DNA from: a virus
Direction: 5' to 3' (one strand)
IMG/VR virus record: IMGVR_UViG_3300045253_000023
Span: 97,562-161,561 of that record
DNA length: 64,000 nucleotides
Positions 157 through 46,649 of the stretch are shown here, in pieces (the first letter of the stretch is position 1; the number at the start of each line of letters is the position of its first letter). The notes below the pieces were generated by a model. The model was not told the DNA's origin and ran no database searches. It saw only the letters and a program-made list of their open reading frames with translations. Made by a program: the position numbers and the translations under genes.

Positions 157-231
157 GCTCCTGTGGCGCAATGGCAGCGCATTTGTTTGGTAAACAAAAG
201 GTCCTGAGTTCGATTCTCAGTTGGAGCACCA
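157..231 (+). tRNA. tRNA-Thr(GGT)
   Basis: Cloverleaf: acceptor GCTCC/GGAGC, anticodon arm TTTGT-TTGGTAA-ACAAA, T arm CTGAG-TTCGATT-CTCAG, encoded CCA. Confidence 0.92.
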
Positions 232-235
232 CTAT

Positions 236-676
236 ATGATAGAGACAATTGATATCAAGGATGTTGATCCCAAGTTGTTTGTTCAACTTGGCAGAATGAC
301 ATTCCGTGATGGATCATTGATGCGCCAAGCATTGTATGATCTTCGATCTGATCTCTATGGAAAGATGGGTGAGAACACGATGTATCCTCACAAGGGTGTC
401 GTGTTCTTGCTTAAGATCAACAATGAGTTGGTAGGTTGGGCATTGACCCACCGTCAACTCTGCAAGATCACTCGCAAGTACGAGACACTTGGTATGTTGT
501 GGGTCAAGACAAAGCATCGTCGCAAGGGTTATGGAACAGAGCTATACAATGCCATGTTCTATCATCACACCACAATGAGCAAATTCCAAGTCATCCCACA
601 TGATTACACCGCGAAGATGTTCTTCAGGAACTTTGGAATCACATTCAAGGGAGTTGTTCCCATTGAACGCAAATAA
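236..676 (+). CDS. GNAT-family acetyltransferase
   Basis: Acetyl-CoA motif A WVKTKHRRKGYGTELY; start moved to ATG 236, downstream of the tRNA. Confidence 0.75.
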   Translation: MIETIDIKDVDPKLFVQLGRMTFRDGSLMRQALYDLRSDLYGKMGENTMYPHKGVVFLLKINNELVGWALTHRQLCKITRKYETLGMLWVKTKHRRKGYGTELYNAMFYHHTTMSKFQVIPHDYTAKMFFRNFGITFKGVVPIERK

Positions 677-688
677 CAAGAGGACTGC

Positions 689-1018
689 ATGCCAATCTTT
701 GAATATGACTGTGCTGAGTGTCATCAGGCGTCTGATATCCTTGTTAGACATGATTCTGACATTCCCCATTGCACTAAGTGTGGTTCTGTTAGGCTACATA
801 GAAAGGTGTCTGCTCCCGCTTTTCATTTGAAAGGCAATGGCTGGTACAAGACGGACTTTGGTGGCAAGAAGAACCATCACACAGAACGTATTGATCATGA
901 ACCAGTCACCAAGATGGATAGTTACTTGGAAGATCGTTATCGTGCCAATGACAAGGATGCTCATGGCGCCTTGAAGGCTGATGGTGAAAAGAATCTCAAG
1001 GATGGAGGAGTGCGATGA
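689..1018 (+). CDS. FmdB-family zinc-ribbon protein
   Basis: MPIFEYDCAEC...CTKCGS...SAPAFHLKGNGWYKTDF signature. Confidence 0.85.
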   Translation: MPIFEYDCAECHQASDILVRHDSDIPHCTKCGSVRLHRKVSAPAFHLKGNGWYKTDFGGKKNHHTERIDHEPVTKMDSYLEDRYRANDKDAHGALKADGEKNLKDGGVR

Positions 1019-1180
1019 ACAACGGACAGGGCGATTGCATCGATAAAGGCACTACAGATATCAAAGACCCAACAAGTTGCGATGATTATGAAGGTTTCTG
1101 ACGACTTCGAAGGCTTCTAAAACAATGTTCGATGATGATTATGAACCAGAGGAAGACATTGATCTCTGGGGCGACTTTCT

Positions 1181-1255
1181 GCTCTCAAAGCATAACTGGT
1201 GATGCAATCGCCTCGTAAGCGATAGAACTGGGTTCGATTCCTAGTGAGAGCACCA
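1181..1255 (+). tRNA. tRNA-Thr(CGT)
   Basis: Acceptor GCTCTCA/TGAGAGC, anticodon arm ATCGC-CTCGTAA-GCGAT, TTCGATT T-loop, CCA. Confidence 0.9.
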
Positions 1256-1268
1256 AATTGAGGTTGAC

Positions 1269-1586
1269 ATGATAGATGAGATCACAGTTGAAATCCAAGC
1301 AGAACTGAAAGCAGAATGGCCAGACAAGACCATTGTGTTTGATTCTGAGTACATCAGCAGAAATACTCCAGTTGGATTCTCTACTCGAAAACTCAATCAT
1401 CATGTTGTTGGACCAGTAGAAACACTTATGATCAAACGATTTGGACCAAATGGTCTTTTCGAAGAAGTGAAATATACTGGACCAATGGTCACAGCTTATA
1501 AGATTCGATACAAAGAAGAACAGCACAAGGTGATCATTGCATTGCTTGAAAAGATGCGCGGCCTTCCGGAAGAAACCATAATTTAG
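1269..1586 (+). CDS. hypothetical protein
   Basis: ORF with GAGGT SD filling the gap between two tRNAs. Confidence 0.6.
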   Translation: MIDEITVEIQAELKAEWPDKTIVFDSEYISRNTPVGFSTRKLNHHVVGPVETLMIKRFGPNGLFEEVKYTGPMVTAYKIRYKEEQHKVIIALLEKMRGLPEETII

Positions 1587-1592
1587 AACAAT

Positions 1593-1670
1593 GCGCCAGT
1601 AGTCCAATTGGTAGGAGACAACAGGCTTAGACCCTGAACAGTGTCGGTTCGAATCCGACTTGGCGTACCA
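1593..1670 (+). tRNA. tRNA-Leu(TAG), short variable loop
   Basis: Acceptor GCGCCAG/TTGGCGT, anticodon arm CAGG-CTTAGAC-CCTG, T arm GTCGG-TTCGAAT-CCGAC, CCA. Confidence 0.88.
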
Positions 1671-1689
1671 AACAACATGGGAATTCACA

Positions 1690-1926
1690 ATGCAACTTGA
1701 CAATGAAGGTTTGACCCCAGAAACCAAGGCGCGAATTGATGCACACCAGATCACTCTCAATGAGATGAAAGTCAAAGACCTTCATTTCTGCTGGGGTCCG
1801 GAAGCGCACAAGAAAACCAAAGAAGAACGTGCAATTGAAGTCTGCAAGGCTTTGGATGCAATCTTTGCTGGTGAATTCACTCCAGCGCCACCAATTGGCG
1901 ATTCGAATCATATGGAGACAGCATGA
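1690..1926 (+). CDS. hypothetical protein
   Basis: ORF downstream of the tRNA; stop overlaps next start (ATGA). Confidence 0.55.
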   Translation: MQLDNEGLTPETKARIDAHQITLNEMKVKDLHFCWGPEAHKKTKEERAIEVCKALDAIFAGEFTPAPPIGDSNHMETA

Positions 1927-2348
1927 GTAGCAATGGTTGGATTGGGGTTGACTTTGATGGAACATTGGCGTTCTATGAGCGCAAGAAGTATCGCAGCGGT
2001 GAGGTTGGTCCACCAATTCCAAAAATGCTTGCTCGCGTCAAACAGATGCTTGAAGCAGGCAAGACAGTCAAGATTTTCACTGCTCGTGCGTATCCATTCA
2101 CTGATGTGGATGCTGATGCTGACTACATGGCACTGCAGATTTCAGCCAGAGCACTGCGCGGCGAACAAGCAGACAGAGCCAATGATGCGTTGCTGAACAT
2201 TGCTGCCATCAGAACATTTTGTATGGATCATCTTGGACGAGTGCTCACAATCACTTGTGTCAAGGACTTCTACATGGATGAGTTGTGGGATGACCGCGCG
2301 ATCCAGGTAGTTCATAACACTGGAGATCGTGCAGATGGCACTCCGTAA
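1923..2348 (+). CDS. HAD-superfamily phosphatase (phage PNK-phosphatase-like)
   Basis: WIGVDFDGTLA (DxDGT), IFTAR, ELWDDRA motifs. Confidence 0.8.
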   Translation: MSSNGWIGVDFDGTLAFYERKKYRSGEVGPPIPKMLARVKQMLEAGKTVKIFTARAYPFTDVDADADYMALQISARALRGEQADRANDALLNIAAIRTFCMDHLGRVLTITCVKDFYMDELWDDRAIQVVHNTGDRADGTP

Positions 2349-2565
2349 GAACGTCATTCAGGAATCAATGCGATTCTTGAAGAAGAGCATTTTGACAGAA
2401 CAGGTTTCCCAGAAAGGCAATGATTTGTACATCAGTGTGTACAATGATCATATGGGTGTCTCCAAGGTTGAAAACTCAGCTGGAATGTTTCGATTCAGAA
2501 TCAATGGTGAATTCATCAGACTGGATCAAAACCAGATGAATGCACTCAGGAAGTTCATTTCATAA
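2335..2565 (+). CDS. hypothetical protein
   Basis: ORF overlapping the upstream stop. Confidence 0.55.
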   Translation: MALRKNVIQESMRFLKKSILTEQVSQKGNDLYISVYNDHMGVSKVENSAGMFRFRINGEFIRLDQNQMNALRKFIS

Positions 2566-2577
2566 GGAAGTGGCAAT

Positions 2578-2760
2578 ATGACAACCAAGGTTGTAGTGAT
2601 GCATGATCAACCCGAGTACGACAAGAAATTGCTTGTGCGTACAGTTCAACACGGTTCTGATTCCAATTGCCCTCATTATCAAGAGCAAACAGTTCAACCT
2701 GGTGCTCATCTGACATTCTGGGTGCATGCAAATCAGCACTTGGTGATCAAGGAAATATAG
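2578..2760 (+). CDS. hypothetical protein
   Basis: AAGGAAG SD, tight gene packing. Confidence 0.55.
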   Translation: MTTKVVVMHDQPEYDKKLLVRTVQHGSDSNCPHYQEQTVQPGAHLTFWVHANQHLVIKEI

Positions 2761-2764
2761 GCAA

Positions 2765-3178
2765 ATGAAGTTCAAAGAATTCATTGACTTTTCGCCCGAT
2801 TCAGACTATACTAAGATGAGGCACAGCAAGCCTCAAATCGACGATTACCCTGCCTTTGCGGATGACCTACATGCAAACAACATCGACTCCAGCGTCAGAT
2901 TCGAATCAGCTGAAGACCTCATCCCTACGCAGAAGAATTTCAACGTGGCAAAGGTCAAGAAGTTTTACGATAATGATGAGGCTCGCACAGCTTTCCCTGT
3001 CACTATCTCTGAAGATAATTTCGTTGTCGACGGTCATCATCGCTGGGCCGCATCGCTTCAGCATCGGGAAACAGTGAAATGCCATTGCATTGCGATGACA
3101 CTCCAAGAATGTAACAAGTTCCTCAAGAACAAGCCTTATACAAGCAAGAGGGGTGTCAATGAAGATTTACAGCATTGA
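2765..3178 (+). CDS. ParB/Srx-like N-terminal domain protein
   Basis: LIPTQ...PVTISEDNFVVDGHHRWAA motif. Confidence 0.75.
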   Translation: MKFKEFIDFSPDSDYTKMRHSKPQIDDYPAFADDLHANNIDSSVRFESAEDLIPTQKNFNVAKVKKFYDNDEARTAFPVTISEDNFVVDGHHRWAASLQHRETVKCHCIAMTLQECNKFLKNKPYTSKRGVNEDLQH

Positions 3179-3272
3179 GAACCTTGCAAATGGCAGGAAA
3201 GATTCTCCAGAAACAACTCAACGCAGAATAGCAGCACAACGTAACAGAAGAAACCGTGAACAAATTCAATAA
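3159..3272 (+). pseudogene. possible GIY-YIG/NUMOD3 homing endonuclease remnant (37 aa)
   Basis: Hand translation MKIYSIENLANGRKDSPETTQRRIAAQRNRRNREQIQ: GIY-YIG-like first strand joined to a NUMOD3-like tail. Confidence 0.4.
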
Positions 3273-3273
3273 T

Positions 3274-3362
3274 GCCCTCTTGGTGTAATCAGGCAAACAC
3301 GGACGTCTTAAACACGTCTTAAGCCATAAGGCTTGTCGGTTCGATCCCGACAGAGGGCACCA
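3274..3362 (+). tRNA. tRNA-Leu(TAA), long variable arm
   Basis: Acceptor GCCCTCT/AGAGGGC, anticodon arm GACGT-CTTAAAC-ACGTC, variable hairpin AAGCC-ATAA-GGCTT, CCA. Confidence 0.92.
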
Positions 3363-3395: not shown

Positions 3396-4073
3396 ATGTG
3401 CGGAATAATTGGCATCGTTGCCACCAAGTCTTCGTTTCCGCTTGACAAATTCAAAGCACTTCTCCAAGAAGCCAAAATCCGTGGGCTGCATGCCACGGGA
3501 TTGGCTTTTGTCGATTCTGGGAAGCTGGTTTGCGAACGTCAGGCCACCAGCGCAGAAACATTCAAGTTTCCCGAGGCAGTCGCCAAGAAGTCGACGCGGG
3601 TTGCCATTGCGCACACTCGCTACAGCACTTCGGACTTGAAGTTCAATCAGCCTATCTTTTCACCCACCAAAGCAGTTATACTAAACGGAGTGATCTCTCA
3701 AGCCGATCCTTCGGAGTGGAAGAAGCTATTTGGTGTTGAGTGCGAAGGTCGCAATGATGCAGAGATTGTGTTACGCCTGCTTGAGAAGCAAGAACATCCA
3801 CTCAGTGTAGTGGACTCTTCACAGGCATGCATCTATGTTGACACTGAACTCAATGAGTTGAAGTTCTGGCGCAATGAACAGCGTCCACTGTATTGGCTGG
3901 AGACAGAAGATTGCTTGATTGTTGCTTCCACCAAGGACATCTTCAAACGTGCTGGATTCAAACAAGCACCAAGCAATTGCACACCATGCGTGGAGTATGG
4001 CATCAATCTTCAATCTTTCAAACGCACCAGCCAAATCATCCGCAAGGCAAATGAGGATTTACAGAATGTTTGA
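3396..4073 (+). CDS. class II (Ntn) glutamine amidotransferase
   Basis: N-terminal M-C-G-I-I-G nucleophile, RGLHATG, AHTRYSTS, LNGVI, NDAE motifs. Confidence 0.88.
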   Translation: MCGIIGIVATKSSFPLDKFKALLQEAKIRGLHATGLAFVDSGKLVCERQATSAETFKFPEAVAKKSTRVAIAHTRYSTSDLKFNQPIFSPTKAVILNGVISQADPSEWKKLFGVECEGRNDAEIVLRLLEKQEHPLSVVDSSQACIYVDTELNELKFWRNEQRPLYWLETEDCLIVASTKDIFKRAGFKQAPSNCTPCVEYGINLQSFKRTSQIIRKANEDLQNV

Positions 4074-4953
4074 CCCCAAGACATTCACCTATGGCTTCGA
4101 AATGGAAGTGGGTGATGTGCCTCGTGCACTGATGATTCCTTCACATTTGGGAGAGTGGGAACATTCTGAGCGTGACATTGTCAATGAGCGCGAGCCATAT
4201 CGAGGCATGTGTTCTGATCCAGATGGCATCAATCCACCAGTCGGCGGCGAGATCAACACCAAACCAACATTGGGATGGCCAGCTCAGGTCAAGCGCATTC
4301 TGGACATCAAAGAGTTCTGCGTGCTCTCTGGGCACATGCCCACTTCACCATTCACAACCCACAATCATCTTCATGTGCATGTCCCTGGGTTGATCGAGGA
4401 CATTGGAGCACTGCGTCAATTGATGGCATACATCGGCGACAACCAACAAACAATGGTTGACAGAGCATACCAGTTCTATGATCTGCCAACTATGAAGTTG
4501 GTTCCAAAGATCAAGACCTATTTGCAACATGATGGCGGCCGAATGTTCCATCCATGGCAGATCAAGAACATCATGTCTGCCACCAACTTCTATGACTTCA
4601 TTCGCGAACACAGACGCAATCAGCGTGGCACTGTGCTTGACCGAGTCTTGCGCAATGCAATCAACACATACTGCTTGAAGTTTGTCAAGACGGTGGAGTT
4701 CCGTTGCTTCCGCGCATCATTTGAAGAATCTAAGCTGGAATCATGTTTCAAGGTTGTTGAAGCCTTCATGGACAATGCGCTGAATCATCCAGAGCGCAGC
4801 ATGAATGAGTTCTTCAATGAGACTGAACTTGATTTGCCCATGATGACCTTTGATTTGGAACTGGCCCGAGGCTGGGCAGCAACCAAGGTGCCTGATCTGA
4901 ATGACAACATGGGCACCAGAAAGAATCGCACATATTATGAGGTGGAACAATGA
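4066..4953 (+). CDS. putative amidoligase (COOH-NH2 ligase, glutamine-synthetase-like fold)
   Basis: TYGFEME, GGEINTKP, HLHVHV, TVEFR motifs; overlaps the GATase stop. Confidence 0.8.
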   Translation: MFDPKTFTYGFEMEVGDVPRALMIPSHLGEWEHSERDIVNEREPYRGMCSDPDGINPPVGGEINTKPTLGWPAQVKRILDIKEFCVLSGHMPTSPFTTHNHLHVHVPGLIEDIGALRQLMAYIGDNQQTMVDRAYQFYDLPTMKLVPKIKTYLQHDGGRMFHPWQIKNIMSATNFYDFIREHRRNQRGTVLDRVLRNAINTYCLKFVKTVEFRCFRASFEESKLESCFKVVEAFMDNALNHPERSMNEFFNETELDLPMMTFDLELARGWAATKVPDLNDNMGTRKNRTYYEVEQ

Positions 4954-5534
4954 AACTTGGTCCAACAACTCGTGAAGCATTTGTCAAGGCTCTTGAGCTC
5001 ACACATGATCCAAGAGACAAATTTGCCAAGACATTTCTCCGCAAGGGAGATATGGTTGGTGGTTGGGGAGAATGGACTCTTGGAGCATTCTCTGAAAGTG
5101 GTCATCTGATGGGCGCATGCATGTTGTCTGTATCCAAGCGCGAGCCACATGTGATCAATCTGCAGTTGCTTCATACCTTCGCAATGTATCGTGGTTTTGG
5201 TATTGCTTCCAAGCTCATGGCATGGGCAGTGATGTATGGTTGCGCTGTTGCCAAATACTTCCGTGTGTCATCTGAACCAGAATCCATTGAGTTCTACAAG
5301 AAGATTGGATTCTATTTCTGGGGCGAACAGAAGAGTGGTTGTGCATTGTCGATGTTTCGCTATGAAGCAGATGCCAAGTGCGCATATGATCCACATGACC
5401 CAATTATCAGTGCCGCATTGAGCTCCAAGCGTCGCGGTGGTGTTCATCAGATGTATCCAACAGAGTTTGTGACTCTCTCATACGAGCCATACAATCGCTT
5501 CCAGGATGTACCATGTCTGTCGATTACCGTCTGA
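4950..5534 (+). CDS. GNAT-family acetyltransferase
   Basis: LLHTFAMYRGFGIASKL motif A and SIEFYKKIGF motif B. Confidence 0.82.
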   Translation: MKLGPTTREAFVKALELTHDPRDKFAKTFLRKGDMVGGWGEWTLGAFSESGHLMGACMLSVSKREPHVINLQLLHTFAMYRGFGIASKLMAWAVMYGCAVAKYFRVSSEPESIEFYKKIGFYFWGEQKSGCALSMFRYEADAKCAYDPHDPIISAALSSKRRGGVHQMYPTEFVTLSYEPYNRFQDVPCLSITV

Positions 5535-6568
5535 AAGAAAATCGCAAGCAAGCATTTGTGAAGTGGATGGTGTGGTCAATGCTCTATGAGGATTGCGACC
5601 CATCTTTGTTCATGACCAACTACCTGTTTGATCGCTTTGAAGTCAACTCAGAGCAACGACTCTGGTTGTGCTGGCTGTATGGCACCACGTACTATCTGCC
5701 AACAGCCTGGGTTATCTTCAATGAGTTCCCTGACTTTGAACTGGTGGATCAGAAGCGTCTTGAAGATTGGAACAATGCCAACTACAAGAGGCTCCGCTAT
5801 CAGACTGACACCAAGTACAACAAGGGTCATTTGCCTGCTCAGTTTGCTTCCTATCGCGCATGGATTCATTCCACTGCCAAAACACAGCGCGAGAAGTTCA
5901 AACAGTTGACCACAAACAAATGCCCAGAGAAGAACTATCAACTGGTGTTTGATGAGATCACAGGCAATCTGCACAAGTTCGGCCGATACACTGCATGGTT
6001 CTATATCCAGACCCTCAAGCACTGCGCCAAGATCAATGTTGATGCGCCCAATCTCATCCTTGAGGACTTCTCTGGCAGCAAGAGTCATCGCAATGGTCTC
6101 TGCTATGCAACTGGTCATGATGAATGGGTCAACCAGAAGCTGACCAAGGAACAAACAAACGTTCTCAATGTTGAAGCTGCCAAGATGCTCAAGGAAGTCA
6201 ATCTGTACATGATGCAGCTGGACTTCACGGAGCAGGCTGACTACTTCGCCATGGAGACCTGTTTGTGTTCCTTCAAGAAGCTGTTCCGCAAATCTCGAGG
6301 CAGGTATCTTGGATACTACCTTGACAGACAGGCTGAAGAGATCGCGAAGGTCGAGCAAGATGGTTGGAGCGGCATTTGCTGGAAACCATTATGGGATGCC
6401 CGCAATGAAACCATCAAGCGTCCTGAATTGTTGGGCGGTAATGTGGTGCCAGAGCGAATGGTCCACTTCCTAGACAATGGCTCGCTCGAAAGATTGGACT
6501 ATCTGTGGCCTGAGGACAAGACCAGCACTGAGACACTCTCGTTTGATCTAACTAAATTCTCTGTATAA
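5513..6568 (+). CDS. amino acid:DNA transferase (aGPT-Pplase2 / alpha-glutamyl-putrescinyl thymine pyrophosphorylase clade 2, HhH-glycosylase-like fold)
   Basis: RLWLCWLYGTTY, KFGRYTAWFY (HhH-like), SHRNGL, ETCLCSFKK, GRYLGYY motifs characteristic of this family. Confidence 0.82.
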   Translation: MSVDYRLKENRKQAFVKWMVWSMLYEDCDPSLFMTNYLFDRFEVNSEQRLWLCWLYGTTYYLPTAWVIFNEFPDFELVDQKRLEDWNNANYKRLRYQTDTKYNKGHLPAQFASYRAWIHSTAKTQREKFKQLTTNKCPEKNYQLVFDEITGNLHKFGRYTAWFYIQTLKHCAKINVDAPNLILEDFSGSKSHRNGLCYATGHDEWVNQKLTKEQTNVLNVEAAKMLKEVNLYMMQLDFTEQADYFAMETCLCSFKKLFRKSRGRYLGYYLDRQAEEIAKVEQDGWSGICWKPLWDARNETIKRPELLGGNVVPERMVHFLDNGSLERLDYLWPEDKTSTETLSFDLTKFSV

Positions 6569-6582
6569 TCAATCACTTATTG

Positions 6583-6645
6583 TAAGTGTTTGAATGTTTG
6601 GAAAATTTAGTGCTTGACTTTTGAGAATGACAGGAGTAGAATAGC
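6583..6645 (+). promoter_or_regulatory. conserved early promoter module P1
   Basis: TAAGTGTTTGA box, GGAAAATTTAGT, TTGACT(6614)-17 bp-TAGAAT(6637). Confidence 0.9.
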
Positions 6646-26811: not shown

Positions 26812-26860
26812 ACCCTATTGACGTCTGCCCATGCTATGGGTAATTGTTGGTGTCCCAACA

Positions 26861-27250
26861 GGCCGTCATTGCAAGATGAGTGTATGAAGCGAGCCGAAAG
26901 GTTCTTTGGACGCGGGTTCGATTCCCGCCATCTCCACCAAAATGTATTGTGGCGACCATGGGTTCAATTCCCTTAACTCTTAGGCCGAGTGGAAGCGAAT
27001 GAGGAAAAGAGCTTAGCGGCTCGACAGGTTCAAATCCTGCTCAGTACATTTTGATGGGGATGCCCAGGTTTCGACAGGGGACATGACTAGGCAAGTGGAC
27101 ACTCCGCCGATGTTACTGGCGATTAAAGTGAAACAAAACTCCAAATGCAGCTAACGATGCTGTTTTCGACCAGTCTTCGAACGTTCTTCAGTTCCGCAAG
27201 GCTGCTTGATATCAACTGTGATCCCGAGTGGATTCCTCAACGGGATATGG
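26861..27250 (+). ncRNA. ssrA: circularly permuted (two-piece) tmRNA; outer ends approximate
   Basis: Acceptor piece ending GCGGGTTCGATTCCCGCCATCTCCACCA (26939) lies upstream of the 5' end GGGGATG...TTCGAC (27056); G3-U70 pair; ACACTC/GAGTGT helix 2; pk1; tag frame 27147-27209 AANDAVFDQSSNVLQFRKAA*. Confidence 0.92.
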
Positions 27251-27277
27251 AAGGGCAGGGCAACCTGCCCTTTCTTT
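27251..27277 (+). terminator. rho-independent terminator after tmRNA
   Basis: AAGGGCAGG-GCAA-CCTGCCCTT followed by TCTTT. Confidence 0.85.
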
Positions 27278-27347
27278 GTATGTTGATCATGCTATTACAA
27301 TGAATGTCTTGGTTGAGCGTTTGTCGCCGACAATTCAAAGGAAACTC

Positions 27348-32348: not shown

Positions 32349-32770
32349 GGGATACCAACTACATTGTGTTGATACCTGCTGTTGATCTTGATCCGCCGCA
32401 TGGGCTTGATCCTCACTCCGAGCGCGACCAGAAGAAGGTTGGCATGTTGCTTCGGGCGTTTGCTCTCAAAGGCTTTAATCCTGCTATGCCCGCACTGGTT
32501 GGCTATCCAAATGGCAAGGGCAGGGTCCAGTTGCTATCTGGAACGCATCGACACATGGCAGCCATGATGCTCAACATGTCACTGCCTGTTACAATCTGGC
32601 CTCGTGCTTATGTGGAGTGCGCATGGGGCACCGAGTACTGGCAAACAATCATTCGTGATATTGCCGTTGCTGAGCTCAAGAACGTCAAGGCTGTCACTGG
32701 TGACCTGATGGATGTGCTGCCTGATCCAGTTGATCCCACCGAATTCGACTATCGAGAACACACATGCTGA
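32345..32770 (+). CDS. ParB-like domain protein
   Basis: PALVG...QLLSGTHRHMAA motif. Confidence 0.55.
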   Translation: MRDTNYIVLIPAVDLDPPHGLDPHSERDQKKVGMLLRAFALKGFNPAMPALVGYPNGKGRVQLLSGTHRHMAAMMLNMSLPVTIWPRAYVECAWGTEYWQTIIRDIAVAELKNVKAVTGDLMDVLPDPVDPTEFDYREHTC

Positions 32771-33315
32771 CCGCAATCCTCGCAACGACTCGTCATGGTG
32801 GCCTTGGTTACCAAGGCGACATTCCATGGCGCAAGGCAGGCATCGCCAAAGAGATCACTCAACCTGACATGAACATCTTCCGCAAGTACACTGATGGCAA
32901 GCTGTGCTTGTTTGGTCGAAAGACCTATCTGGGCATGCGCGGCAATCGCCTTGATGCCACCCCATTGCTGCCCAATCGTCGCACTTGGGTGATTGGTACA
33001 ACCCCAATCAAGGAATTGAGCTCAGCGGACACCCAGTTCGACTCTCTCGACAATCTCAAGGCTGCACTGGCAACGTTGCCTGTTGAACAGGAAGTGGTCG
33101 TCTGCGGTGGTCTCGCACTGTACGATGCGCTGCTATCTCAGATTGACAAAATCATCTGGAATTGCTTCGCATTTGACTGCCCATTTGACGTCCAATGGCC
33201 GCATCATCCAACTCACCTTGAGCAAATGGGATTCGTGCTGACCTATCGTCAGATCGTCTCCCCTGTTCTGGGCACCGCAATTTTCTATCGTGAAGGCACA
33301 AAGGCTCCTTGGTGA
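32764..33315 (+). CDS. frd: dihydrofolate reductase
   Basis: GLGYQGDIPW, DMNIFRKYT, FGRKTY, LPNR, VCGGLALY. Confidence 0.9.
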   Translation: MLTAILATTRHGGLGYQGDIPWRKAGIAKEITQPDMNIFRKYTDGKLCLFGRKTYLGMRGNRLDATPLLPNRRTWVIGTTPIKELSSADTQFDSLDNLKAALATLPVEQEVVVCGGLALYDALLSQIDKIIWNCFAFDCPFDVQWPHHPTHLEQMGFVLTYRQIVSPVLGTAIFYREGTKAPW

Positions 33316-40259: not shown

Positions 40260-41189
40260 ATGAAGAACCAGTACGAACATGACTATCTCGCATTGTTGCG
40301 CAAGTGCCTTGATGAAGGTGTTGGCGTGGAATCAGATCGCACCAAGATTGGAACCATCCAACTGACTGGTCAGACATTGGTTGCTGACAAGGTGGGAATG
40401 GAGTTTCCGACTCTGACAACGAGACCAACACCATTTCGTATTGCGTTCTGGGAAACAATGATGTTCCTCAATGGCATCACAGACACCAACTTTTTGGTCG
40501 ACAAAGACATCACCATCTGGCAAGCCAACACGACTCGCGAGTTCCTTGATGCTCGTGGATTGATTCATGTTCCGGAAGGCGACATGGGCAAGGGTTATGG
40601 CTTCCAGTGGCGTAATTTCGGTGGCGATGCCATGGGCGATCAGAAGGGTGTTGATCAGATTGCCAGTGTCTTGCACTCTCTTGAGAACGATCCATTTGGT
40701 CGTCGTCATCTCATTTCAACCTGGAATCCACAGCAACTGAATCAAATGGCGCTGCCGCCATGCCACATCATCAACCAATACATGATGGTGGAATTGCGCC
40801 CAGATGATTGCTATCGACTGGATTCGACCTTCTACATGCGTTCATGCGACATGGTGTATGGACTTCCATTCAACATGCAAGCATATGCATTCCTGAACAT
40901 TGCGTTCGCGGATTATCTGTCTCATACCAAAACCTATCGCGCCAAGAACATCAACGTGCTCCCTGGCAAGGTAACATTCATGGGTGGTGATTGCCACATC
41001 TATCGTAACCAGGTTGACATGGTCAGAGAACAGCTTGAGCGCGCACCATATGATGGAACGCAACTCAAGCTGGGCTATCCTATTCTCTCATTCAACCAAT
41101 TGTTGAATCTGTCATACGCAAAGGATGTTCGCATTGCGGCATTCAAGCGTCATGCTCAGTTCGACAATCGTCCGCCAATGGCTCAATGA
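40260..41189 (+). CDS. td: thymidylate synthase
   Basis: DRTKIGT, FPTLTT, IWQAN, YGFQWR, RR, MALPPCH, RSCD...GLPFN (Asn = dUMP specificity), DCHIY. Confidence 0.92.
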   Translation: MKNQYEHDYLALLRKCLDEGVGVESDRTKIGTIQLTGQTLVADKVGMEFPTLTTRPTPFRIAFWETMMFLNGITDTNFLVDKDITIWQANTTREFLDARGLIHVPEGDMGKGYGFQWRNFGGDAMGDQKGVDQIASVLHSLENDPFGRRHLISTWNPQQLNQMALPPCHIINQYMMVELRPDDCYRLDSTFYMRSCDMVYGLPFNMQAYAFLNIAFADYLSHTKTYRAKNINVLPGKVTFMGGDCHIYRNQVDMVREQLERAPYDGTQLKLGYPILSFNQLLNLSYAKDVRIAAFKRHAQFDNRPPMAQ

Positions 41190-44203: not shown

Positions 44204-45559
44204 ATGAGCAAATCAGTCCAGATTTACAACGCACCACGCAAACTGAACTGTGATCATCTCCTGGGAACTTTCCTGGGAGATGAACATTACAGCATGGTTG
44301 TTGATGATGACGTTGACTTCTATGCACCAACCAATCCACTTCATCCAAAGAACGATGAATCAACCATCCTGTTCAAGTTTCGCAAGAATGTGTTTCCTGC
44401 TGAACTTCAGAACTGCGCCTATGAGGGACTGATCCAGGCTGCTGGTCCATCACAGAATCGCGGTCTCGCTGCTGGTCCTCGCAATGAGAAGCTGCAGAAC
44501 AGGGATTGGGTCACAGCATTCCAGCTTGCTGTTCTCGAAGCATTCCTCGACACCGAGACACGTCTCGACGACAGTGATCCCATTGATCAAGTTATACTAA
44601 ATCAAGCTGCGAACAAGTATAACGGCACTCCATCACGTGGCCTTGTATGGCTTCGCAATCAGATCATCGCATCCGGAGAGACATATGAAGGCTTCTTCGA
44701 CAACTGGTTCGCTCGCACAAAACCCTTATCGCCTGTTGAACGATGCGCTGAGTCGAGGAGACTACAAGACAATTTCATCAGTGACACAACATATGCGAAC
44801 CCTGTCCTCTCAGGAATTGCTGGATTTTTTGATCGATATCCTCGAATTCCATACGGACGTGCGACGTCGTACACGGAAGCAAACCCTGATCTCTTCGCAA
44901 AGTCCTTCCCCTATCTCGCAGCATTGACCACATGCTTCAAGCATTTGTTGCCTCAACGATTTGCGAAGCAACAAGCAGCCTGCGACCAGCTTGATCCTCA
45001 CTTTGTCATTCCTGGTTCAGTGTTCACCACGCTGACAATCAACAAGACCTTCCGCACTGCTGCTCATCGAGACGCAGGTGACCTGGGTCGAGGCTTTTCC
45101 AATCTTGGTGTGATTCAACCACCAGGAAGCCGAGACTTCAAAGGCGGAATGTTGGTGTTGCCTGAGTATGAAGTGGCAATCAATATTCGACCTGGTGACC
45201 TGTTGCTGATTGCGAATCATGATGCAATCCATGGCAACACCGCTATTGAACCTGTCAGAGCAGATTGTTGCCCAGAATGTATTGAGCGTATGAGCATCGT
45301 GGCATACTTCCGCGAGTCCATGCTTGAGCTCGGCTCATGGGAATATGAGCAATATCGCCGCCAGTATGTTGAGCATCGCAAGGCGCTTGGCAAGAAGCAT
45401 CCAGACTCCAATGGTCCTTTGTGGAATGGTATATCGAAAGGAATGTGGGATGGTCCGGAATGGCGTGAGTTCTTGAGTTCAAAGGATGGTGGTCCAGAGA
45501 TGCTGGAGAAATACCACCCTCTATCAGCTGAAGGCAATCTCGAATCCTTCTTTACATAA
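44204..45559 (+). CDS. TET/JBP-family 2-oxoglutarate/Fe(II) dioxygenase
   Basis: FTTLTINKTFRTAAHRDAGD (HxD), GGMLVLPEY, PGDLLL, IHGNT (distal His), RMSIVAYFRE (2OG-binding Arg). Confidence 0.85.
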   Translation: MSKSVQIYNAPRKLNCDHLLGTFLGDEHYSMVVDDDVDFYAPTNPLHPKNDESTILFKFRKNVFPAELQNCAYEGLIQAAGPSQNRGLAAGPRNEKLQNRDWVTAFQLAVLEAFLDTETRLDDSDPIDQVILNQAANKYNGTPSRGLVWLRNQIIASGETYEGFFDNWFARTKPLSPVERCAESRRLQDNFISDTTYANPVLSGIAGFFDRYPRIPYGRATSYTEANPDLFAKSFPYLAALTTCFKHLLPQRFAKQQAACDQLDPHFVIPGSVFTTLTINKTFRTAAHRDAGDLGRGFSNLGVIQPPGSRDFKGGMLVLPEYEVAINIRPGDLLLIANHDAIHGNTAIEPVRADCCPECIERMSIVAYFRESMLELGSWEYEQYRRQYVEHRKALGKKHPDSNGPLWNGISKGMWDGPEWREFLSSKDGGPEMLEKYHPLSAEGNLESFFT

Positions 45560-46055: not shown

Positions 46056-46649
46056 ATGAAAACTGTGATCGCGATTGGCGGGCAACCCGCCACAGGCAAG
46101 ACGACCCTCATGAAAGGGTTGATGGCTTTCCTGGACAAGAAATACGGCAAGAATGAGTTTGGTCAACAGGCTGAACTCATCACTGCGCATCACTGGAAGC
46201 ATGGTGGTGTCTACATTCTTGGAAGCTACAAAGAAGACCAGACATTCTCTGGCACCGACACCTTCTCAATGGCTGTTCAGCCAAAAGCCTTGCCGTGGCT
46301 CAAGAGCCTGCGCGATGGATCAACTGTGATCTATGAAGGTGATCGACTCTTCAATCAAACAATGCTTGAATCCATTGCAGATGAATGCGATGACTTCGCT
46401 CTGGAATGCATCATGCTGGATGTTCCAGAAGAAACACTGCATCAGCGCCATATCAATCGTGGCGACACACAAACGGCTCAGTTCCTCAAGGGTCGCGCAA
46501 CCAAATATCTTGGCATCGACATGAATATGATGCTTCAAGGTTACATCAACCATTACCCTCACGAAACCCCAGAACAAGGCATCGCTATCATCTATCATAT
46601 CCTTGATGTGATTGAGAAGACAGTCGAAGCTGAAGAACTTCCATTCTGA
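46056..46649 (+). CDS. P-loop kinase, 5-hydroxymethyluracil DNA kinase (5-HMUDK)-like
   Basis: IGGQPATGKTT, LGSY...FSGTDTFSMAVQP, YEGDRL, RHINRG...QFLKGRATK motifs. Confidence 0.75.
   Translation: MKTVIAIGGQPATGKTTLMKGLMAFLDKKYGKNEFGQQAELITAHHWKHGGVYILGSYKEDQTFSGTDTFSMAVQPKALPWLKSLRDGSTVIYEGDRLFNQTMLESIADECDDFALECIMLDVPEETLHQRHINRGDTQTAQFLKGRATKYLGIDMNMMLQGYINHYPHETPEQGIAIIYHILDVIEKTVEAEELPF

Follow-up and report, generated by a model that had tools for sequence, protein, structure and literature searches.

A four-gene operon of a T4-like phage very probably serves thymine hypermodification

Four overlapping genes at positions 3396-6568 of a 64,000-nucleotide stretch of phage DNA (IMG/VR record IMGVR_UViG_3300045253_000023, positions 97,562 to 161,561; here, the window) encode a glutamine amidotransferase (GATase), an amidoligase, a GNAT acyltransferase and an amino acid:DNA transferase (AADT). 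An earlier reading made from the letters alone (the sequence-only reading) had proposed these four families and had placed the operon in a pathway of thymidine hypermodification. Profile and structure searches agree with all four family assignments, and the placement in that pathway also stands: we consider it very likely that the operon serves thymine hypermodification. The window forms the final 64 kb of the phage genome, which is complete at 161,561 bp and carries direct terminal repeats of 127 bp. Homologues of gp32 and gp59 within the window and a family-B polymerase elsewhere in the genome give the phage a T4-like affinity, and its relatives encode gp23 and gp45.

Gene content of the operon

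All four open reading frames lie on the + strand where the sequence-only reading had placed them, and each overlaps the next. The ATG of the second gene (4066) stands before the TGA of the first (4071-4073), the second and third genes share an ATGA (4950-4953), and the ATG of the fourth gene (5513) lies 22 nucleotides (nt) before the TGA of the third (5532-5534).

The first gene (3396..4073, + strand; 225 amino acids [aa]) encodes a stand-alone class-II glutamine amidotransferase, that is, one of the N-terminal nucleophile (Ntn) type, with PF13522 and PF13537 above cut-off. It matches GATase_6 (3.3e-9; 37.3 bits against a cut-off of 27) as well as GATase_7, aligns from residue 1 of the NCBIfam models glmS, asnB and purF, and carries no fused acceptor (synthase) domain. 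The protein begins MCGIIG (ATG 3396), with the Cys exposed once Met is removed, and its homologues start MC[GAS]. Residues invariant in 26 relatives are Cys1, R28-G29, H72/R74-Y-S-T, N83-Q-P, N96-G97 and N119-D120, and the features of an Ntn enzyme are present: the nucleophile Cys, the Arg-Gly, the Asn-Gly oxyanion pair and the glutamine-binding Asp.

The second gene (4066..4953, + strand; 295 aa) encodes a predicted carboxylate-amine ligase of the glutamine synthetase (GS) fold, in a remote branch of Amidoligase_2 to which its fold and its relatives' PF12224 matches point. The protein itself has no Pfam or NCBIfam match, PF12224 not being reached even at E 10; its sole direct match is phrog_2443 'amidoligase' (E 0.002), and none of its 216 metagenomic homologues is annotated. 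Across the family, 27 of 40 members match PF12224 at E <= 0.1 (best 1.5e-4), and fused or paralogous relatives pass its cut-off of 22 (P0122 with 27.9 bits, L172 with 26.1 bits). Because the window protein lacks a match that its relatives attain, we regard it as belonging to a remote branch and not as a curated member.

The predicted structure is consistent with this placement. An AF2 model built on 40 homologues has a pLDDT of 94.6, and its fold neighbors in the PDB are all carboxylate-amine ligases, namely YbdK/GCS2, GS, GCS, GmaS and PafA (Z 9.3-10.9). YbdK scores Z 10.9 and 10.2, glutamine synthetases about 10, and gamma-glutamylcysteine ligase and PafA 9.6; the alignment to 1tt4 has Z 10.9 over 221 residues at a root mean square deviation of 4.5. 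Foldseek E-values for the model are weak on their own (3e-3), and the family profile gave only noise against PDB sequences; the call rests on the uniform family of fold matches, the Z-scores and the relatives' PF12224 matches. By its modeled fold, then, the product of 4066..4953 is a remote Amidoligase_2, GS-fold ligase. Its invariant residues are E12, E14, E62, N64, H101, H103, E211 and R213, and all of these except N64 resemble the pattern ExE...E...HxH...ExR.

The third gene (4950..5534, + strand; 194 aa) encodes a GNAT acyltransferase that exceeds the cut-offs of three GNAT models (PF13673, 27.6 bits against 23.6; PF13508, 27.4 against 27; PF00583, 24.5 against 20.7) and carries an R-G-F-G-I-A acetyl-CoA motif. 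The fourth (5513..6568, + strand; 351 aa) encodes an AADT of family PF18724, formerly aGPT-Pplase clade 2. The sequence-only reading had named it an aGPT-Pplase2, and it indeed matches the ADDT model PF18724 (2.5e-21; 76.9 bits against 26.2), which also finds ViI gp247, M6 gp51, PaMx11 gp46 and phiW-14 gp109. The protein matches phrog_3271 at 5.7e-63, and its closest characterized homologue is ViI gp247 (27% identity, E 1e-35). Its E248-T-C-L-C252 aligns with the ETxxC of those four characterized enzymes and is invariant in relatives. This Glu/Cys pair is essential in M6 gp51 and ViI gp247, where its mutation abolishes activity (Lee et al. 2021, PMC8989533). Both the GATase and the AADT of the window keep their catalytic residues intact.

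Partner genes and conservation of the cassette

Two further enzymes that would be needed for such a pathway are encoded about 40 kb from the operon. One is a TET/JBP-type 5-methylpyrimidine dioxygenase (TET; 44204..45559, + strand; PF12851, 69.9 bits against a cut-off of 34.9) with the HRD...H...R motifs of 2-oxoglutarate (2OG)/Fe(II) enzymes; its reading frame is open from GTG 44123, and its 451 aa are counted from ATG 44204. The other, at 46056..46649 (+ strand), had been cited as a kinase by the sequence-only reading. It belongs to the P-loop kinases of family PF18751 (43.8 bits; cut-off 27), contains the Walker A motif GGQPATGKT and is predicted to be a 5-hydroxymethyluracil DNA kinase. 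That role is suggested by the adjacency of PF18751 kinases to AADTs in relatives and by the use of this annotation in the O'Toole et al. preprint (10.1101/2025.08.14.668559).

In relatives, these partners stand beside the operon genes. A search anchored on the amidoligase gave 80 IMG/VR loci, 35 of which have enough flanking sequence on both sides. The order TET-GATase-amidoligase-GNAT-AADT-kinase, on one strand, was found in 30 of the 35; two more run GATase-amidoligase-GNAT-AADT-kinase-TET, with the TET gene last, and the other three miss only a tblastn-detectable GNAT. All six genes are contiguous in the nearest relative (L005), and the window phage has split the cassette between two loci. 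The kinase gene lies directly downstream of the AADT gene in most relatives, and the adjacency of GNAT and amidoligase is likewise conserved.

Many relatives carry, between GNAT and AADT, an additional gene of ~440 aa with a ParB/Noc-like nucleotide-binding domain, which matches the ParB activator of O'Toole et al. (2026, PMC13229309). This gene is also missing from the closest relatives (L005-L007), and the window genome holds neither a PF02195 match nor a homologue of it. The ~440-aa gene (L029:6629-7957 and homologues) has a weak GIY-YIG-like N-terminus; when three such genes were searched, one (L045) gave PF01541 at E 0.002, and that of L029 had no Pfam match. In some cassettes still other enzymes are encoded (L175:9002-10432, L166:6040-6636 and L070:10839-11345): the gene of a radical SAM protein stands between those of AADT and kinase, and small 2OG-Fe(II) oxygenases adjoin the GATase or the amidoligase.

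Outside these loci, gene fusions tie the amidoligase to DNA-modifying enzymes. An 82-kb contig (L097) encodes a GATase-AADT pair followed by a 698-aa fusion of GNAT, Amidoligase_2 and 5-hydroxymethyldeoxyuridine (5-hmdU) DNA kinase 2 (HMUD2), with HMUDK_hel and a thymidylate synthase (TS)-like gene adjoining it. Phage Simon (L096, 61 kb) carries an AADT, an amidoligase, LMWPc (a low-molecular-weight phosphatase), a 5-hmdU DNA kinase, Nmad5 and a TS-like gene. P0122-P0124 combine the amidoligase with a 5-hmdU DNA kinase domain in one protein, which places the amidoligase at DNA. These fusions, together with recurrence of the set in unrelated lineages, make a role outside DNA modification very unlikely. 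Tandem amidoligase fusions also occur in a quite different phage gene cluster (L099:7664-17845), alongside genes for an aspartate decarboxylase, a methyltransferase, LuxE/LuxC-like proteins, an aminotransferase, PTPS and radical SAM proteins; this cluster may be another base-modification pathway.

The genome also bears on which base is modified. It encodes a single thymidylate synthase (40260..41189, + strand; PF00303, 206 bits) that passes TIGR03284 (161.7 bits against 108) and whose best phage matches are annotated as thymidylate synthase, as well as a dihydrofolate reductase (32764..33315, + strand; PF00186, 57.8 bits, genome 130325-130759, which is window 32764-33198). With a single equivalog-level thymidylate synthase and a dihydrofolate reductase, the phage makes ordinary T, and no C5 DNA methylase (PF00145) was found across the complete genome. 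T in DNA is the most likely substrate of the dioxygenase. Oxidation of T has been shown experimentally for phage dioxygenases of this neighborhood type (PMC13229309). A hypermodified cytosine was considered and rejected, there being no C5 methylase and only one TS-family gene. At the level of profiles, a dUMP hydroxymethylase route in this phage is likewise ruled out, since the synthase passes the thymidylate synthase equivalog cut-off and a dihydrofolate reductase is present.

Three of the phage's proteins have a C-terminal tail in common. The DNA polymerase (genome 55572-58148) ends in DLTQFFT, TET in NLESFFT and the AADT in DLTKFSV, a D/N-L-x-x-F-F/S-T/V pattern that fits 4 of 278 predicted open reading frames, where shuffling would give ~1.1; the remaining one, a minus-strand frame of 67 aa, is doubtful. 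Among relatives, an L-[DE]-x-[FWL] tail ends 41 of 45 TET proteins, 38 of 48 AADTs and 19 of 48 GNATs, against 1 of 47 GATases and none of the 44 amidoligases or 43 kinases. The C-terminal tail of the T4/RB69 polymerase gp43 binds the sliding clamp gp45. Since TET and the AADT bear the polymerase's tail motif, they probably ride the sliding clamp, and by this analogy the tail-bearing enzymes may be clamp-tethered.

A tRNA-Leu gene (3274-3362) lies immediately upstream of the operon, and four tRNA genes (Thr-GGU, Thr-CGU, Leu-UAG and Leu-UAA) are found shortly upstream of the operon within window 157-3362. ARAGORN also called a permuted tmRNA with a 20-residue tag (window 26847-27300). The operon had no blastn match among 50,697 phage records. 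A promoter scan returned only generic sigma-70-like sites flanking it (2784-2812 and 6614-6642); because site counts are close to those of shuffled controls, we claim no operon boundary. The isoelectric points of the six pathway proteins gave no useful signal. CCGG is very scarce throughout the genome: trinucleotide frequencies predict ~130 sites in its 161.6 kb, and 38 are present. Of these, nearly all lie inside TCCGGA (there are examples in the window), 12 of them inside the 8-bp palindrome TTCCGGAA. As a speculation, modification of the T that flanks CCGG on each strand could protect the site.

The partner of the GATase and the proposed pathway

The sequence-only reading had the GATase feed ammonia to the amidoligase. 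Gene overlap and a gene fusion fit that claim, but the GATase is also kept in cassettes that have no amidoligase. This came from a set of loci anchored on the AADT and chosen against amidoligase bias (41 distinct loci, each with 3.6 kb or more of upstream sequence). All 41 have a GATase; a GNAT was found in 32 of them and an amidoligase in 21. The window's type, amidoligase plus GNAT, accounts for 15 loci. A divergent GNAT (GNAT') alone, with no amidoligase, is found in 17 (TET-GATase-GNAT'-AADT-kinase; L140, L175, L117, L166 and 13 more), and the window-type GNAT is clearly diverged from it. Six loci pair a paralogous amidoligase with an LMWPc phosphatase and have no GNAT; this type is seen in L172, L114, L128 and others, and also in L008 and L062. 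These three types have TET, GATase, AADT and kinase in common. The remaining three loci have the GATase only and group with minimal GATase-AADT modules (L104-L109), which stand beside a terminase gene and have neither amidoligase nor GNAT nor TET in their vicinity; L105 carries a guanylate-kinase-like gene ahead of the pair, and minimal kinase-GATase-AADT modules exist as well. The amidoligase-LMWPc pair recurs in the unrelated phage Simon, beside its AADT and 5-hmdU DNA kinase.

On a quick IQ-TREE phylogeny of the AADT, the cassette types interleave, requiring 15 changes, and some mixed clades are well supported; Cr30, L107, L112, L176, L111, L129 and the window sequence lie on long branches and their placement is unsure. 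This interleaving indicates that the genes between GATase and AADT occupy a swappable slot. The window GATase is also much closer to AADT-paired GATases (E ~1e-32) than to amidoligase-paired GATases of phages that lack an AADT (E ~1e-7). A glutaminase without an activating partner cannot amidate anything, and in half the cassettes the AADT is the only candidate partner. That the GATase is constant with the AADT, and not with the amidoligase, points to the AADT as its constant partner and favors ammonia as the nucleophile that the AADT uses. The exocyclic-methylene intermediate of AADTs takes exogenous nucleophiles, and the GNAT of PaMx11 accepts 5-aminomethyl-dU for acetylation and leaves the secondary amine of N-glycinyl-T unacetylated (Lee et al. 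2021, PMC8989533).

We propose a six-enzyme, post-replicative pathway of which the four operon genes would be the tailoring half. Ordinary T would be incorporated into DNA, some of it would be oxidized there to 5-hydroxymethyluracil by the TET/JBP enzyme, and the PF18751 kinase would phosphorylate the product. The AADT would then form an exocyclic-methylene intermediate by way of Cys252/Glu248, and ammonia freed from glutamine by the Ntn GATase would serve as the nucleophile to give 5-aminomethyl-dU. Using ATP, the GS-fold amidoligase would join a carboxylate, most likely that of an amino acid, to this primary amine, and the GNAT would acetylate the newly supplied amine. The predicted end product is a 5-(N-acetyl-aminoacyl-aminomethyl)uracil, its amino acid not specified. 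In GNAT-only cassettes a shorter route would lead from 5-aminomethyl-dU by acetylation to 5-acetylaminomethyl-dU, the base of PaMx11.

These statements differ in strength. The protein families and folds, the TET-GATase-amidoligase-GNAT-(ParB-like)-AADT-kinase cassette and the lack of a C5 methylase beside thymidylate synthase and dihydrofolate reductase come directly from the analysis. We give an even chance to the wiring as a whole, in which GATase and AADT make 5-aminomethyluracil, the amidoligase acylates its amine and the GNAT caps it. The broader combination falls somewhat short of even: that this AADT clade is an ammonia:DNA transferase with a dedicated Ntn glutaminase (a PurF-like displacement of phosphate), that the base is a peptide-like N-acetyl-aminoacyl-aminomethyluracil, that TET, AADT and GNAT are clamp-tethered and that the slot is swappable, all jointly.

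Several points weigh against the proposed pathway. We know of no biochemistry for any protein of the window's clade and of no AADT shown to use ammonia. The window kinase lies outside the characterized 5-HMUDK families (PF18748, PF18747 and PF18723), and PF18751 is absent from all five reference phages (M6, ViI, PaMx11, phiW-14 and SP10), whose kinases are M6 gp54, ViI gp67/gp243, PaMx11 gp49, phiW-14 gp37 and SP10 gp186. The window genome is without the ParB-like activator of many relatives, and some ParB-less clade C1 dioxygenases are reported to be inactive in assays (PMC13229309). The clamp-tail idea rests on a short motif and on the analogy with gp43-gp45 binding in T4/RB69. The other adverse points fit the route that the sequence-only reading had drawn.

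In that route, a free amino acid would be transferred by the AADT to 5-phosphomethyl-dU; by analogy with ViI, this might be serine, attached through its hydroxyl. With ATP, the amidoligase would activate the carboxylate of the adduct, ammonia from the GATase would turn it into a carboxamide and the GNAT would acetylate the free amine, so that the final base is a charge-neutral N-acetyl amino-acid amide. A conserved overlap of 4-8 nt joins the GATase and amidoligase genes in the window and in most relatives, one 527-aa protein fuses the two and is followed by a GNAT (P0121), and a class-II GATase adjoins Amidoligase_2 in Pseudomonas phage tf and Arthrobacter phage Salgado, which lack an AADT. 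The closest characterized AADT, ViI gp247, is an O-serine transferase whose product leaves amine and carboxylate free, and PafA, a fold match at Z 9.6, illustrates that GS-fold ligases can activate a macromolecular carboxylate. Yet all 20 of the 41 AADT-anchored loci without an amidoligase keep the GATase, as do the minimal GATase-AADT modules, and phage Simon has an amidoligase and an AADT without a GATase. The GATases beside Amidoligase_2 in the AADT-less phages are far more distant, and because the tailoring genes fill a slot whose content varies while the GATase and AADT around it stay, adjacency and fusion may reflect position only; GNAT, amidoligase and kinase are also fused, though they are not consecutive steps. 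A changing amino-acid donor would fit poorly with the interleaved cassette types on the AADT tree, and we know of no GS-fold enzyme that takes ammonia from a class-II GATase. We therefore judge amidation of a transferred amino acid to be unlikely: the chemistry of the sequence-only reading is plausible and was probably mis-wired.

A further alternative is that GATase, amidoligase and perhaps GNAT build a free small-molecule nucleophile (for instance, a gamma-glutamyl amine or the amide of an amino acid), which the AADT attaches to DNA in one step. The distribution of the clamp-like tail, which is frequent on TET and AADT, found on many GNATs, rare on the GATase and never seen on the amidoligase, would suit such a division of labor, as would the use of the free metabolite putrescine by the AADT of phiW-14 (Lee et al. 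2021, PMC8989533, Table 1). The kinase, however, must act on DNA and is tail-less too, the kinase-amidoligase fusions put the amidoligase at DNA, and the GATase would still need a role in amidoligase-free cassettes; we hold this order of events to be improbable. Least probable by a wide measure, to our minds, is that GATase, amidoligase and GNAT merely sit beside the AADT and modify a protein, a tRNA or a metabolite, in a manner similar to that proposed for the GATase-amidoligase-GGCT sets of other phages. GATase-amidoligase sets do occur in AADT-less phages, and the tandem amidoligase fusions of L099 lie in quite another gene cluster. Against this, the three genes sit between TET and the AADT-kinase pair in dozens of loci, GNAT-amidoligase-5-hmdU-kinase fusions exist, phage lineages unrelated to one another have the set together with AADTs, and many of the relatives' GNATs bear the same tail as TET and AADT.

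Significance and comparison with known systems

Phage DNA that contains hypermodified thymines is shielded from restriction and Cas nucleases, and the enzymes that make these bases are tools for labeling DNA. TET-GATase-kinase-AADT cassettes are widespread in uncultured T4-like phages, with hundreds of loci found; their GATase is constant, and their tailoring slot holds amidoligase and GNAT, GNAT alone or amidoligase and phosphatase. Should ammonia be the true donor, the AADT family would extend beyond amino acids and polyamines, and glutamine-dependent DNA amination would be added to known biochemistry. If the reading of the slot is correct, the module between GATase and AADT sets the final base chemistry.

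The sequence-only reading had presented the modified base as new. We found no paper that determines the product of a TET-GATase-kinase-AADT cassette, so that part stands; the kind of cassette, however, is already known, as two publications describe such families. Lee et al. (2021, PMC8989533) recorded, as uncharacterized, that AADT and kinase occur together with glutamine amidotransferase, amidoligase and TET_JBP, and T-dioxygenase neighborhoods with GATases, PF18751 P-loop kinases and PF18724 AADTs appear in O'Toole et al. (2026, PMC13229309). The window has PF12851, PF13522/PF13537, PF18751 and PF18724 in common with clade C1 of O'Toole et al. (5mYOX, 'ParB-dependent') and with the TET_JBP/5-HMUDK/aGPT-Pplase2 contigs of Lee et al. 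A C5 methylase is absent from both the window phage and the published T-dioxygenase cassettes, and the window's relatives carry the ParB-like gene. The window's own cassette differs from these in being split, with TET and kinase 40 kb off, and in having no ParB-like gene. In what was read of O'Toole et al., GATase, kinase and AADT are named but no amidoligase, which in the window is assigned by fold and profile; Lee et al. report amidoligase Pfam matches of unknown function (PMC8989533).

Class-II GATases also stand beside Amidoligase_2 in the early or replication region of LUZ24-like Pseudomonas phages and Arthrobacter phages, in GATase-Amidoligase_2-GGCT/ATP-grasp sets. These sets differ from the window's in lacking AADT, kinase and TET, and their GATases are distant (E ~1e-7) and larger (531 aa in phage tf).

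The pathway to 5-NeOmdU in ViI (gp247, the pyridoxal phosphate [PLP] decarboxylase gp226 and the kinases gp67/gp243) supplies the nearest AADT, with the Glu/Cys motif in common. The window phage has neither the PLP decarboxylase nor the dUMP hydroxymethylase and instead has GATase, amidoligase and GNAT, and the donor of its AADT is probably not serine.

A further parallel is the pathway to 5-acetylaminomethyl-dU in PaMx11, in which an AADT (gp46), a flavin adenine dinucleotide (FAD) lyase (gp47), a GNAT (gp48) and a kinase (gp49) act on bases derived from 5-hydroxymethyluracil (5-hmU). In the window phage, however, 5-hmU would come from TET oxidation in DNA and not from a dUMP hydroxymethylase, the amine would be glutamine-derived ammonia in place of glycine followed by FAD-dependent cleavage, and an ATP-dependent amidoligase step would be added. 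The window AADT has no pairwise similarity to gp46, and its kinase is of another family. Kinase, AADT and GNAT are nonetheless the enzymes that the two systems have in common, 5-aminomethyl-dU is a likely intermediate of both, and the amidoligase-free sister cassettes would give the product of PaMx11 itself.

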